Source: Sphingopyxis sp. | GTDB taxonomy: Bacteria; Pseudomonadota; Alphaproteobacteria; Sphingomonadales; Sphingomonadaceae | Direction of reading: 5' to 3' | NCBI GenBank assembly: GCA_016793775.1 | Contig: JAEULK010000011.1 | Coordinates: 2,686-66,685 of the forward strand | DNA length: 64,000 nt | Shown: positions 1,086-5,409 of the stretch, one piece after another | Layout: each line of letters begins with the position of its first letter | How positions within the stretch are numbered: position 1 is the stretch's first letter | Notes under the pieces: generated by a model | Database searches by the model: none | What the model saw: only the letters and a program-made list of their open reading frames with translations | What the model was told of the DNA's origin: nothing | Translations under genes and position numbers: made by a program

Positions 1086-2060
1086 ATGACAATGACCACC
1101 AAAGGCCAACATTTCCTCCTCTCTGCCAAGGCTCGCACTCTGAGCCTCAAGGCTGTTTTCACCATGGGCGAAGAGGGCGCCTACAAGACGTTCTGCCAGA
1201 TGCGCTGGCCTGAGACGGACGGCGAGGCTGTGTGCCCGCGCTGCGGCTGTGTCGAAACCTACGACATTGCCACCCGCCGCAAGTTCAAGTGCGTTGCCTG
1301 TCACCACCAGTTCTCGGTCACCAGCGGCACGATCTTCGCCAGCCGCAAGCTGGGCTTCGTCGATCTTCTCGCCGCAATCGTCATCTTCGTGAACGGCGCC
1401 AAGGGCATTGCTGCCCTGCAACTGAGCCGCGATCTAGATTGCCAGTACAAGACCGCCTTCGTGCTTACCCACAAGCTGCGCGAAGCAATGGCGCGTGAGC
1501 AGATGGGTCGCCAGCTCGACGGCATTGTCGAAATCGACGGCGCCTATTTCGGCGGCTACGTGAAGCCGGAAAACCACAAGGACGACCGCAAGGACCGCCG
1601 TCTGGTCGCCAACCGTTCGGGCAAGCGCCAGTGCGTCGTCGTGATGCGCGAGCGCGGCGGTAAGTCGCTTCCCTTCGTCGTCGCCAACGAAGGCGACGCC
1701 GTTCCTTACGTCCGCGATCATGTCGCCAACCTTGCCGTTCTCCACGCCGACGAAGGCACCGGCTGGGATGCCCTCCACGCCGGTTGGATGACTGAGCGCG
1801 TCAATCACTCGGTCCAGTTCTTCGACAAGGGTGCATGCACCAATCAGGCCGAAAGCTATTTCAGCCGCCTTCGCCGGATGGAAGTCGGCACCCACCACCA
1901 TATCGCCGGTCCGTACATCGGCGCCTATGCCCGCGAAGCTTCATGGCGCGAAGATAACCGCCGCGTATCGAACGGCGATCAGGCTGCGATGGTAACGGCC
2001 GCGGCGATGGCCTCGCGCGTCAGCCGGGACTGGAAGGGCTACTGGCAGCGAACCAACTAA
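1086..2060 (+). CDS. IS1595-family DDE transposase with N-terminal Zn ribbon
   Basis: CPRCG...FKCVAC Zn ribbon, SVTSGTIF, EIDGAYFGG, ADE, NQAESYFSRLRR, YAREASWR; reading frame intact. Confidence 0.95.
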   Translation: MTMTTKGQHFLLSAKARTLSLKAVFTMGEEGAYKTFCQMRWPETDGEAVCPRCGCVETYDIATRRKFKCVACHHQFSVTSGTIFASRKLGFVDLLAAIVIFVNGAKGIAALQLSRDLDCQYKTAFVLTHKLREAMAREQMGRQLDGIVEIDGAYFGGYVKPENHKDDRKDRRLVANRSGKRQCVVVMRERGGKSLPFVVANEGDAVPYVRDHVANLAVLHADEGTGWDALHAGWMTERVNHSVQFFDKGACTNQAESYFSRLRRMEVGTHHHIAGPYIGAYAREASWREDNRRVSNGDQAAMVTAAAMASRVSRDWKGYWQRTN

Positions 2061-2455
2061 GAACAAGCGCCGAACACCATGGGAATCCGGGACACATAAA
2101 GCAGACCTTATATGCGCCTGTGCATAACGTGGTGTGCAAAATATGCTCTAAAATGCCCTCAGAGGGCACAGGAAGCGCGTTAACCAAGCGGAGTACTCCT
2201 CTTGGCATTTTTGCGATTGTCGCATCCACAGGGCTTTAAAACCGAAAATTTGGCACTCTCTTGCGACAAGTGCTTGCCTCTAAACCTGAACGGCCCTAAA
2301 CAGCAAAAGGCCCCGGACGGTGGAAACGTCCGAGGCCTCGAGAGCCCCGCGCTGGTGGCGGGGGATTTGCTATAGCGAGGGGGTTTTATACCCCGGGGAT
2401 AGCAAGGTCAACTGCCACCACGCGCATCAGAAGCGTTTTAATGGTGGAGTTCGAC

Positions 2456-2728
2456 ATGGCTACATACAACGTCACGATCTTGTGCGGCGCGTGCAAGTGC
2501 CCAGCGCAAACCGTCGCTAATCCGAAACCTCATGACAAGGTGACCTGTCCCAGGTGCAACCGAAGCGACCGTTTCGATAACGTCCATCGGACGGTGGGCG
2601 AGCATGTCCAATATGAGACTGCCCGCGCCCTCAATGAAAGCATGGCCCGCGCCACTCGCGGCAGCCGCTTCGTTAAGTTCAAGCCAAAGCACCTCCCCCA
2701 GCGGTCGTTCCGCTGGATTGCCGGCTAG
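2456..2728 (+). CDS. Small Zn-ribbon protein (90 aa)
   Basis: CGAC...CPRC pairs; GGTGGAG SD at 2443-2449 supports the ATG at 2456. Confidence 0.65.
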   Translation: MATYNVTILCGACKCPAQTVANPKPHDKVTCPRCNRSDRFDNVHRTVGEHVQYETARALNESMARATRGSRFVKFKPKHLPQRSFRWIAG

Positions 2729-2783
2729 AGCGATATTGAGTTTCTGAGTTTTCATTCGCCCAATCGGAAAGGGGGTGATTTCA

Positions 2784-2918
2784 TTGGCAAACAAGACCCA
2801 CGAACGTGGACGGGACGCTGGTAGCGGCCAGTTCATTCCCGTCCACGTCGCAGAACGTCGTCCTAAGACGACGGTGGTTGAGACCTATAAGGTCGGCAAG
2901 AAGGGACCGAAGAATTAA
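2784..2918 (+). CDS. 44-aa basic hypothetical protein (below the ORF-track cutoff)
   Basis: SD AAAGGGGGTGAT then TTG: MANKTHERGRDAGSGQFIPVHVAERRPKTTVVETYKVGKKGPKN, stop TAA, followed by a hairpin. Confidence 0.7.
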   Translation: MANKTHERGRDAGSGQFIPVHVAERRPKTTVVETYKVGKKGPKN

Positions 2919-2932
2919 TCGGTCCTAATATG

Positions 2933-2962
2933 GGTCGCCGGGGCTGCACGGTCCCGGCGACC
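2933..2962. terminator. Hairpin between convergent cargo units
   Basis: GGTCGCCGGG-N10-CCCGGCGACC, a 10-bp perfect stem; no clear U-tract. Confidence 0.55.
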
Positions 2963-2964
2963 AA

Positions 2965-3129
2965 TCAGGGACGAATGTTTGCGAGGCAATCCGCTGGCGG
3001 TTTTGATGCGGCCTTTTTGCGGTCCACGGACATCGACACGCCTTCGGCCTGACGATACTCGTATCGAGGCATCTTCAGATCAAAGACGACCTTAGGCCGT
3101 GCGTTCGCCCCGCTGCTCTTTTTAGACAT
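2965..3129 (-). CDS. 54-aa basic hypothetical protein coupled to the Ntn hydrolase
   Basis: GGAGG SD then ATG overlapping the last codons of the upstream gene; MSKKSSGANARPKVVFDLKMPRYEY. Confidence 0.5.
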   Translation of the reverse strand: MSKKSSGANARPKVVFDLKMPRYEYRQAEGVSMSVDRKKAASKPPADCLANIRP

Positions 3130-3970
3130 AATCTGCCTCCAAGGGGTTAAGCTTTCGATCAAAGTGATGCTTCCGTTTTATCCACTTAAAACCTTCGTGT
3201 TTCGTTACGACGCAAATGTCGGTTTCACCGCCGACGGTGTCAGCGCCGGGTAGGAAACGCACGTATGCCTTCGTTGTTTCAACCAAGAAATTTGCGAGCG
3301 CAATCGCGTCCTGTACAGGCATCGCGGGCGATATCAACGGGGCTCTGGTCCGACTTTCTATGTGGGTCAGCACCGCGTCTAAGTTTTCTGGCAACAATCC
3401 AATGTCTAAGAGCGCGTTCGGCAAAAATTGGCTGTAGCCGTTTACGATGCGGTTGATCGCTTCGGGTTGGCCGTCATAGAGGATATCAAATTCGTCCTTC
3501 CCCGCGAGGCATTCCGGCTCTGAGCACTCGCCATTCACGATCTGAATGCGCCATATTTCGCCGTGCATTTCCTTCGCGCAATTGCCCGCGATCCAGAACT
3601 GAAATTCGCTTTGCGGCTTGTCTTCCAGCTTCTGAAAATGCTCCTCAAAGAAGAACGTCCGCGCACGGTTGGCCACCTGTTCGATGGTGTAGTTTTTCGG
3701 GTCGATATGCCATTCGTCGTCTTCCGCGGTGAATCTCGCCCGAAGATCCTTGGCCAGCGTGCTAATGGAGATCGGACCGATGTTCCCCATGCCACACGTC
3801 ATCGCGGCAATTGGAAGACCCTTGCGCAGGTTGAACACCTTATTGCCGTGGGAATAGACATTGGCGATCAAGGGGCGGCCATCATCCAGCGAGGATTCAA
3901 TGAGTGATGACGCGCTATCGGCAGCAAACACGATACAGTCGTGTACTTTGACCGCGACGCAAACCGTCAT
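3122..3970 (-). CDS. Proteasome beta/HslV-like Ntn-hydrolase fold protein
   Basis: N-terminus M-TVCVAVKVHDCIVFAADS matches the Thr1...AAD pattern; GNKVF Lys; C-terminal DTVGGETDICVV; SD GAGGGGG. Confidence 0.7.
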   Translation of the reverse strand: MTVCVAVKVHDCIVFAADSASSLIESSLDDGRPLIANVYSHGNKVFNLRKGLPIAAMTCGMGNIGPISISTLAKDLRARFTAEDDEWHIDPKNYTIEQVANRARTFFFEEHFQKLEDKPQSEFQFWIAGNCAKEMHGEIWRIQIVNGECSEPECLAGKDEFDILYDGQPEAINRIVNGYSQFLPNALLDIGLLPENLDAVLTHIESRTRAPLISPAMPVQDAIALANFLVETTKAYVRFLPGADTVGGETDICVVTKHEGFKWIKRKHHFDRKLNPLEADYV

Positions 3971-4469: not shown

Positions 4470-4534
4470 TGCTACATTACGAAAAGTTCACTAGACAGGG
4501 CAGATGGTCGTTGGTGCGTTTGCTACATAATGCC
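4470..4534 (-). repeat. Transposon terminal sequence with subterminal repeat
   Basis: TGCTACATAA (4521-4530) and TGCTACATTA (4470-4479) are direct repeats 51 bp apart; terminus GGCATTATGTAGC on the - strand. Confidence 0.75.
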
Positions 4535-5260
4535 GAGCGCCTCGCCGGGATCGAGGTCGGGCAAGATGCCGGGCAGGCACGCCGCCATCAGCGACTTGCC
4601 CGCGCCGGGCGGGCCGACCATCAGCAGATTATGCCCGCCCGCCGCGGCGATTTCGAGCGCGCGCTTGGCGACCTCCTGCCCCTTGACCTGCGCGAGGTCG
4701 GCCATGCGGCGCGGCTCCTCGACCTCACCGGGGCGCGGCGGGGCGAGCAGTGCGCGGCCCTTGAAATGGTTGAGCAGCGAGAGGAGGTCGGGCGCCGCGA
4801 GCACCTCGACATTGCCCGCCCACGCCGCCTCAGGCCCCTGCGCGACGGGGCAGATCAGCCCGCGATCCTGGCTGCCCGCGTGAAGCGCCGCGAGCAGCAC
4901 CCCGGGCGAGGCGGCGACGCGGCCGTCGAGGCCGAGCTCGCCGACGACCACATAGGCGCCGATCGTTTCGGCATCGATGACGCCCATCGCGCCGAGCAGC
5001 GCCAGCGCGATGGGCAGGTCGTAGTGCGATCCCTCCTTGGGCAGGTCGGCGGGCGACAGGTTGACGGTGATGACCTTGGGCGGGAGCGACAGGCCGATCG
5101 CGGCGATCGCGGCGCGGACGCGCTCGCGGCTTTCGCCGACCGCCTTGTCGGGCAGGCCGACGACGACGAAGCGCGGCACGCCGGGGGTGATCTGGCACTG
5201 CACCTCGACCCCGCGCGCTTCGAGGCCGAGATAGGCGACGGTGGACACGATCGCGACCAT
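4535..5260 (-). pseudogene. comM: 5' half (242 codons) of comM/yifB Mg-chelatase-like AAA+ ATPase, interrupted
   Basis: GLPDKAVGESRERVRAA, VNLSPADLPKEGSHYDLPIA, VKGQEVAKRALEIAAAGGHNLLMVGPPGAGKS. After LDPGEAL it reads into the element (GIM-stop). Full ComM is about twice this length. Confidence 0.95.
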
Positions 5261-5409
5261 GGATATCCCCCAAAGCGGACCCCAAAACGGACGATGTGCC
5301 CGGTTTGTTCTCATGCCCTTTTAGGGCAAAGTCGCGCGAAGGCGAGTCTTTTCGGATGTTGGCGAAGGTGCCGCGCAGCGTGACGTTTGGGGCAAGCCCG
5401 ATTGTCGAT

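Follow-up and report, generated by a model that had tools for sequence, protein, structure and literature searches.

What does a long structured leader do in front of a gene for a 90-amino-acid (aa) zinc-ribbon (Zn-ribbon) protein that is carried on a transposon? We take up this question for a 64,000-nucleotide (nt) stretch of Sphingopyxis sp. contig JAEULK010000011.1, hereafter the window, in which the Zn-ribbon gene occupies positions 2456-2728 of the plus strand and the structured region lies 245 bp after an IS1595-family transposase gene. The original prediction, made from this one stretch, placed three stem-loops and a doubly complementary segment before the gene, and offered either a two-state translational switch or an antisense-controlled leader as their purpose. 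The comparative evidence assembled here supports both at once, and we propose, with a probability of about 0.58, that positions 2274-2458 would act as an antisense-operated translational switch for the Zn-ribbon gene, with two convergent promoters.

Scans of genome, metagenome and viral collections yield 12 distinct homologous Sphingomonadales loci in ~7 clades, with named carriers among Sphingobium, Sphingorhabdus, Erythrobacteraceae and Sphingomonadaceae; the copy designated L003 belongs to a cultured strain, Sphingobium xanthum NL9. Fifteen leaders entered the analysis of the plus-strand promoter, 13 that of the minus-strand promoter, and 12 distinct ones the tests of structure. A leader of the same architecture is found in the ~180 bp before the start codon of every close homologue, and between loci the similarity sets in exactly at the plus-strand −35 element, with identity farther upstream equal to background; the conserved unit is therefore the promoter, the leader and the gene together.

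Alternative helices of the leader RNA

The plus-strand RNA of the window would open with hairpin 1, measured as 2308-2338 (6+5 pairs, 7-nt loop), the predicted 5'-terminal stem-loop of the mRNA, followed by hairpin 2 (2345-2363; six G-C pairs, 7-nt loop), the putative target stem-loop, and by an apical hairpin, P3 (2367-2405), which encloses an inner GGGG/CCCC hairpin. All three stems had been called from the window alone and are real, as is the dual complementarity proposed for 2414-2425. Segment A (2349-2361, the loop and 3' arm of hairpin 2) pairs with 2412-2425 of the switch segment B (2410-2425) in a duplex of 13 bp with one bulge (−26.4 kcal/mol), placing P3 inside a long A:B helix, and an overlapping part of B, 2410-2420, can pair instead with 2441-2451, which includes the Shine-Dalgarno (SD) sequence GGAG (−12.4 kcal/mol). 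The translation initiation region spans 2441-2458, with the SD at 2446-2449 and an ATG at 2456-2458; the homologue alignment fixes the start codon at 2456 and not at 2457.

RNAfold assigns 2305-2470 a folding energy of −74 kcal/mol against −55.7 ± 4.1 kcal/mol in 200 dinucleotide shuffles (z −4.4, with no shuffle equal to it), and the minus strand of the leader folds equally well (z −4.7). A search of Rfam, suggested at the outset as a further check, brought no family to light: there is no gathering-level match anywhere in the window on either strand, and the sub-threshold matches around 2300-2450 are at chance level (E 1.5-9; fstAT at 16.9 bits against a threshold of 72).

The same structure is conserved across homologous leaders with covariation, so that the original prediction withstands the refutation test it had set on this point. 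RNAalifold applied to a plain MAFFT alignment recovers hairpin 1 together with the long-range helix that joins hairpin 2 to segment B, and compensatory changes are seen at 20 of 35 pairs. MAFFT alignments of these divergent leaders are structure-inconsistent, and for this reason covariation was counted on an alignment fitted with a covariance model of the structure, R1. Here, 89.7% of cells are paired, compared with 69.5% in shuffles and ~40% in slid controls, and 30 of 35 modelled pairs carry compensatory changes on both sides, values that 0 of 500 shuffles reach. Compensatory change extends to 10 of the 11 pairs of hairpin 1 and 10 of the 13 pairs of A:B, and the P3 helices (helices 3-5) are 67-90% paired, again with compensatory changes.

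Because an R1 alignment leans towards the model, we also used an alignment-free test, in which the duplex energy of a sequence's own arms is compared with that obtained with arms from other clades. Cognate arms are far better matched than non-cognate arms for the A:B helix (−23.0 vs −14.4 kcal/mol), for hairpin 1 (−27.8 vs −12.8 kcal/mol) and for hairpin 2 (−11.9 vs −7.1 kcal/mol), and for A:B no foreign partner matches a sequence's own in 10 of 12 cases. Hairpin 2 forms a local hairpin in 12/12 homologues despite differing stem sequences, and a hairpin containing the SD is present in every one.

The two halves of the leader differ in strand preference. In each of the 12 homologues, the plus strand forms the more stable A:B helix; G.U pairs number 39 there and 8 on the minus strand, and A:B is therefore a structure of the mRNA. 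The part made up of hairpins 1 and 2 has no strand bias, and four homologues fold clearly better there on the minus strand; this is as expected if that part serves in both RNAs.

Scanned over 150 genomes of the family, R1 finds only the genome of the window itself and G242, which has a copy of the L003 type. Three further weak R1 matches are plain terminators and were discarded. The linker between the hairpins (2339-2344 in the window) varies from 2 to 14 nt across clades; it is a GT repeat on the plus strand, e.g., at L004:2890-2901 and in L012, and C/A-rich in the predicted small RNA described below.

A predicted antisense RNA between convergent promoters

The plus-strand promoter is predicted at 2274-2302 (−35 TTGCCT at 2274-2279, 17-nt spacer, −10 TAAACA at 2297-2302), and an element of the form T[TC]Gnnn-N17-TAnnnn ends 5-10 nt before hairpin 1 in 15/15 homologous leaders. 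From this position the mRNA start is predicted at ~2308-2310, which would put hairpin 1 at the very 5' end of the transcript.

The candidate minus-strand promoter covers 2411 to 2383, with −35 TTGACC from 2411 to 2406, a 17-nt spacer and −10 TAAAAC from 2388 to 2383. The only long invariant motif of the leader, GTCAA at 2407-2411, reads TTGAC on the minus strand; it is invariant, and its 17-nt spacing to a TA/CAnAnn hexamer is fixed, in 13/13 leaders, while the spacer sequence varies freely. A search of both strands of the window for TTGAC-N18-TAnA gives a single match, at this promoter, where 0.18 would be expected, and most homologous loci have a match at the equivalent place. The motif fits the alphaproteobacterial sigma-70 consensus, CTTGAC-N17-CTATAT (PMC2873474), and this promoter is the stronger-looking of the two, judged on sequence. 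In the window, the hexamer TAAAAC is the U-rich loop of stem 2367-2405, whose loop and 3' side thus hold the antisense −10 and spacer; the stem proposed originally stands, and above all it would house the antisense promoter.

Hairpin 1 likewise stands but has a second predicted role. Its complement on the minus strand (2339-2307; a G+C-rich stem of 13 pairs, T-rich tail) is called by a terminator scan, its U tail extending from 2308 to ~2297, and in all homologues this hairpin with its U tail, ~70 nt downstream of the antisense promoter, occurs on the minus strand only; the plus strand has no conserved U tract after hairpin 1. Together, these elements delimit a predicted cis-antisense small RNA of ~72 nt (2376-2301, minus strand, both ends placed from sequence) whose full sequence would be complementary to the 5'-terminal ~70 nt of the mRNA. 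In the window it would consist of a 13-nt 5' tail, a stem-loop complementary to hairpin 2, a short C-rich linker, the terminator hairpin and the U tail, and the same two-hairpin build of 70-100 nt, with a 9-14-nt 5' tail, a C/A-rich linker, a terminator and a U tail, is found in 12/12 distinct homologues. The two promoters converge from ~70-100 bp apart, and the point at which the small RNA would terminate falls within the mRNA promoter. A cis-antisense control module of the plasmid countertranscript type is recognised by an opposite-strand promoter inside the regulated leader and by a Rho-independent terminator that yields a stem-loop RNA of ~50-150 nt, and both are predicted here.

Segment B is not part of the region that the antisense RNA spans, and its pairing partners in hairpin 2 are the very nucleotides that the small RNA would cover, making B an internal competitor of the small RNA. 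What this competition would mean for translation was estimated as the ensemble cost of opening −18 to +6 around the start codon, a quantity that is thermodynamic only. The mean cost is 7.9 kcal/mol in the free leader and 14.1 kcal/mol when the part complementary to the antisense RNA is blocked. Blocking hairpin 1 and the linker gives no rise (mean 7.4 kcal/mol), and blocking segment A alone reproduces it (mean 13.4 kcal/mol). The rise is found in 12 of 12 homologues, from 7.5 to 14.7 kcal/mol in the window, and in most homologues B can lengthen the SD hairpin down to the start codon.

We infer from these elements that both promoters fire, that the small RNA is made, and that its effect is repressive. 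The weak plus-strand promoter would produce an mRNA that opens with hairpin 1 followed by hairpin 2, which would initially be exposed, and the minus-strand promoter would start the ~72-nt RNA at ~2376, to be extended across the sequences opposite hairpin 2 and then hairpin 1 as far as the hairpin 1 terminator. When the small RNA is absent, B (2412-2425) would capture A (2349-2361) and leave the ribosome site comparatively open; when it is abundant and occupies A, B would be freed to fold onto the SD and start region at 2441-2451, and translation would fall. Collision of convergent polymerases and cleavage of the RNA duplex would probably add to this repression.

At the predicted start of the antisense RNA lies a perfect 8-bp palindrome, GCTATAGC, at 2369-2376. 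A perfect palindrome of 6-10 bp begins 6-7 nt after the minus-strand −10 in 12/12 homologues, at the equivalent place in L003-L020, against a background of 19 of 222 windows; its sequence differs between clades, it is too short for an RNA hairpin, and the Zn-ribbon gene is the only gene that always accompanies it. We speculate that it could be a candidate operator for a dimeric protein. A bolder extension, to which we give long odds, would have the Zn-ribbon protein itself as a dimeric DNA binder that shuts off its own repressor RNA from the palindrome at 2369-2376, making a bistable switch of protein and antisense RNA that would time cargo expression or the movement of the comM-homing IS1595 transposon or other carriers.

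Competing explanations and related systems

Several observations weigh against the antisense-operated switch. Energy models leave out kinetics and proteins, and the predicted rise in opening cost is smaller, 3.9-5.3 kcal/mol, for L008, L009 and their relatives, the clade to which the window is closest; there the SD is well sequestered, whichever state the leader is in, by a separate anti-SD adjacent to B. The pairing of B with the start region covaries less clearly than A:B, the covariation alignment was itself fitted to the modelled structure with R1, and the 12 sequences amount to only ~7 independent clades. On the promoter side, most of the minus-strand −10 hexamers lack the canonical final T, a generic scan for promoters of the E. 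coli type calls none in 1900-3300, and the invariant GTCAA is unpaired in the consensus structure, where it lies in an internal loop of the leader and so could be a motif acting at the RNA level instead.

The last two of these points would be accommodated by a purely cis-acting leader switch, be it a thermosensor, a ligand- or protein-binding element or autoregulation by the Zn-ribbon protein, in which there is no functional antisense RNA and the promoter-like sequence is an internal-loop RNA motif. Selection of the A:B helix on the plus strand and the SD hairpins of all homologues fit such a switch as well, but we regard it as unlikely, as it leaves unexplained the fixed 17-nt spacing to an A/T-rich hexamer, the U tail found after hairpin 1 on the minus strand only, and the finding that in four homologues the 5' part folds better on the minus strand. 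Nor does the leader resemble a known class of riboswitch, with its invariant unpaired core: apart from the promoter-like elements there is none, since the invariant positions over 15 leaders are GTCAA and two single T's, of which GTCAA and one T fall in the predicted antisense −35 and −10, and Rfam returns neither a riboswitch nor any other family. RNA thermometers of the ROSE and fourU families share the SD hairpins, but neither family includes a counterpart of the conserved long-range A:B helix, and no Rfam match to them is found. The same RNA mechanism as in the favoured switch could, on the other hand, serve addiction or defence, with the Zn-ribbon protein as toxin and an unstable antisense RNA as antitoxin of a type I toxin-antitoxin (TA) system that stabilises a mobile element. 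The architecture is fitting, in that the SD is sequestered in a long structured leader and the predicted cis-antisense RNA would cover the first ~70 nt of that leader, and so are the mobile DNA settings (the IS1595 transposon in comM, the phage remnant of L020, and IMG/VR contigs) and the very patchy spread (2 of 401 genomes of the order). The product, a hydrophilic zinc-binding protein of 90 aa, is atypical beside the usual small membrane toxins, which are hydrophobic or toxic proteins usually of <60 aa; PADLOC has no match, the fstAT score is far below threshold, and distant homologues occur without the leader as N-terminal domains of larger proteins, which argues against intrinsic toxicity. 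A toxin role is one that we consider possible but unlikely.

An antisense RNA might also act mainly by means other than the refolding of B, through transcriptional interference, termination after hairpin 2, or RNase III cleavage that removes a protective 5' hairpin. The promoters face one another and the small RNA ends inside the mRNA promoter, a short T-rich stretch after hairpin 2 in the window is flagged as terminator-like, and there is precedent in RnaG, an antisense RNA that causes premature termination of icsA mRNA (PMC2879508). That T-rich stretch is missing from the L005, L007, L011, L014 and L020 leaders, however, and the strong plus-strand-specific covariation of A and B is left without explanation, so that we give this possibility little weight as the main mode of action; it and the favoured switch are not mutually exclusive. 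A conserved transcription attenuator after hairpin 2 was considered separately and ruled out, as several clades lack the T-rich stretch. That the inverted repeats are sites at the level of DNA, as transposon ends or as recombination or binding sites, is very improbable indeed: the region does lie inside a transposon, 245 bp after the transposase gene, and has a palindrome at a conserved position, but its G.U pairs make A:B strand-specific, the module is single-copy in the genome, and in L008, L013, L019 and L020 it stands without a nearby transposase gene.

Returning to the antisense-operated switch, it shares its logic with the countertranscript attenuation systems of the plasmids pT181, pIP501 and pAMbeta1, where an antisense RNA and an internal segment compete for an upstream segment of the leader. 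If the antisense RNA prevails there, the internal segment is left free to fold into an inhibitory hairpin, which is a transcription terminator before a rep gene. The competition would be the same here, but the inhibitory hairpin is that of the SD and start codon, with no conserved U tract after it, and the output would be translational. In size and build, the predicted RNA recalls CopA, which acts on CopT of R1, and Inc RNA, which acts on repZ of ColIb-P9: these antisense RNAs, ~70-90 nt long, comprise stem-loops and a terminator, are transcribed from a strong promoter that lies within the leader, and likewise act at a distance from the start codon via RNA structure. Control runs through a leader peptide in R1 and an activating pseudoknot in ColIb-P9, both of them governing replication initiators, whereas no conserved leader peptide or pseudoknot is seen in the leader studied here. 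The likeness to the phage C4 (P1/P7) and CI (P4) RNAs drawn in the original prediction is a loose one. There too a mobile element encodes a small structured RNA that masks the ribosome site of a gene farther downstream, but C4 and CI are processed from the same transcript and strand and pair with repeated upstream sites, while the RNA predicted here would have a promoter and a terminator of its own on the opposite strand, and Rfam gives no C4 match. Other antisense and countertranscript RNA families of Rfam (ctRNA_pGA1, ctRNA_p42d, CopA, fstAT and others) likewise give no match at gathering score.

Refolding of an mRNA by a cis-encoded antisense RNA so as to extend an SD-sequestering helix is known from SR4 and bsrG. 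SR4 binds bsrG mRNA away from the ribosome site, the helix that sequesters the SD grows from 4 to 8 bp, and translation is inhibited (PMC3834814). SR4, however, overlaps the 3' end of its target rather than the 5' ~70 nt, BsrG is a small hydrophobic toxin rather than a 90-aa Zn-ribbon protein, and there is no sequence or Rfam relationship to the leader of the window. The 5' tail of the predicted RNA has a counterpart in RNAII of pMV158, whose single-stranded 5' tail is critical for target binding and translation inhibition (PMC4485353). RNAII is also paired with a repressor protein, CopG, as the antisense RNA here might be if the candidate operator, the palindrome, acts as one; RNAII differs in overlapping the repB translation initiation region directly. 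In hok/sok of plasmid R1 (PMC1635323) and other type I leaders, an antisense RNA of ~65 nt is complementary to the mRNA leader and extensive alternative mRNA structures hide the ribosome site, much as is proposed here, but Hok is a 52-aa membrane toxin that is translationally coupled to mok and activated by 3' processing, and no membrane toxin, mok-like coupling or 3' processing is found at the locus in the window.

Judged on these comparisons, the leader and its predicted cis-antisense RNA constitute a new RNA family, absent from Rfam, of a known regulatory type. For a purely computational case the comparative support is unusually clean: there are two conserved predicted promoters and a terminator, the alternative helices covary, and the G.U pairs are biased to one strand. 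The leader would give Sphingomonadales, an order with few characterised regulatory RNAs, a compact antisense switch, and would provide a regulatory handle on an uncharacterised family of ~90-aa Zn-ribbon proteins whose vehicles are IS1595 transposons and phage remnants. Should a toxin or a regulator of the transposon be under its control, the switch would bear on the upkeep or mobilisation of comM-targeting elements. Literature searches returned nothing on the leader RNA or the Zn-ribbon gene.

The Zn-ribbon protein and the setting of the locus

The 90-aa protein has two CxxC motifs 17 residues apart (CxxC-17-CxxC), a long helix and a C-terminal RSFRW motif. Its 15 close relatives share 48-72% identity and invariant cysteines, and a profile search collects 286 representative clusters at E ≤ 0.001, nearly all of ~90 aa; the family is rare in genomes, being found in 2 of 401 at the level of the order and in 4 of 401 at that of the class. 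An AlphaFold2 model (mean predicted local distance difference test score, pLDDT, 84.8) consists of a zinc ribbon, a 28-residue helix and a C-terminal strand. Annotation searches with the protein give little: Pfam returns weak matches to domains of unknown function (DUFs) only, PHROGs an uncharacterised family, NCBIfam a weak match to ECs_2282 under the cut-off, and the Atlas hypothetical proteins only, while PADLOC and a sequence profile search of the PDB return nothing. The best Foldseek match of the model is ZifS (E 0.017), VIA-align stays below Z = 4, and tblastn against PLSDB and INPHARED finds no match.

Longer fused forms of the protein were sought and none was found, which is weak evidence. 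Distant homologues are present in other Alphaproteobacteria (L023, L024, L026), without this leader, and in genome G765 they are N-terminal domains of larger proteins: a 269-aa Peptidase_M23 protein (L023:1492-2298) and a protein of >590 aa with a PG_binding_1 domain (L026:1495-3270). These fusions hint at a link between Zn-ribbon relatives and cell-wall enzymes.

In the window, the leader and the Zn-ribbon gene appear to ride on an IS1595 transposon inserted in comM. The transposase gene (1086-2060, with Pfam DDE_Tnp_IS1595 and its zinc ribbon) lies upstream of the leader, and to the right of the module is the N-terminal half of comM (4523-5314, minus strand), a split gene whose half ends at 4523 and whose Mg_chelatase_C part is found on another contig (G000 contig C66:2438-2725). 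In L003 and L005, with the same gene order, the comM-homologous stretch stops similarly close to a homologue of a 144-aa gene. The 400-bp intergenic region has one copy in the genome and no DNA match among 100 relatives, and on both grounds the idea that the leader is a repeat or a miniature inverted-repeat transposable element was set aside.

A transposase gene lies directly upstream in five loci, as in the window, and no transposase gene is near the module in L008, L013, L019 and L020. Distant IS1595-family transposase genes with ~30% identity to that of the window lie downstream of the module in L004 (5038-6003, minus strand) and L012 (2405-3250, minus strand), on the opposite strand to it. 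On an IMG/VR contig (L020:3788-5786), the neighbours of the module are genes for a phage portal protein and a prohead serine protease, between which no capsid gene lies, and the surroundings look like a prophage or gene transfer agent remnant.

Two hairpins lie 3' of the transposase stop codon in the window, at 2146-2162 and 2184-2215. A T run comes after the second (2184-2205), which resembles a terminator of the transposase transcript, and the Zn-ribbon gene would therefore need a promoter of its own. Directly after the Zn-ribbon gene is a 47-aa open reading frame (2775-2918, plus strand), without a family match in Pfam, PHROGs, PADLOC and NCBIfam scans, that is probably a second gene of the Zn-ribbon operon; it has 61-77% identity to counterparts in the L008, L009, L010 and L013 loci only, and a G+C-rich hairpin follows it at 2934-2963.

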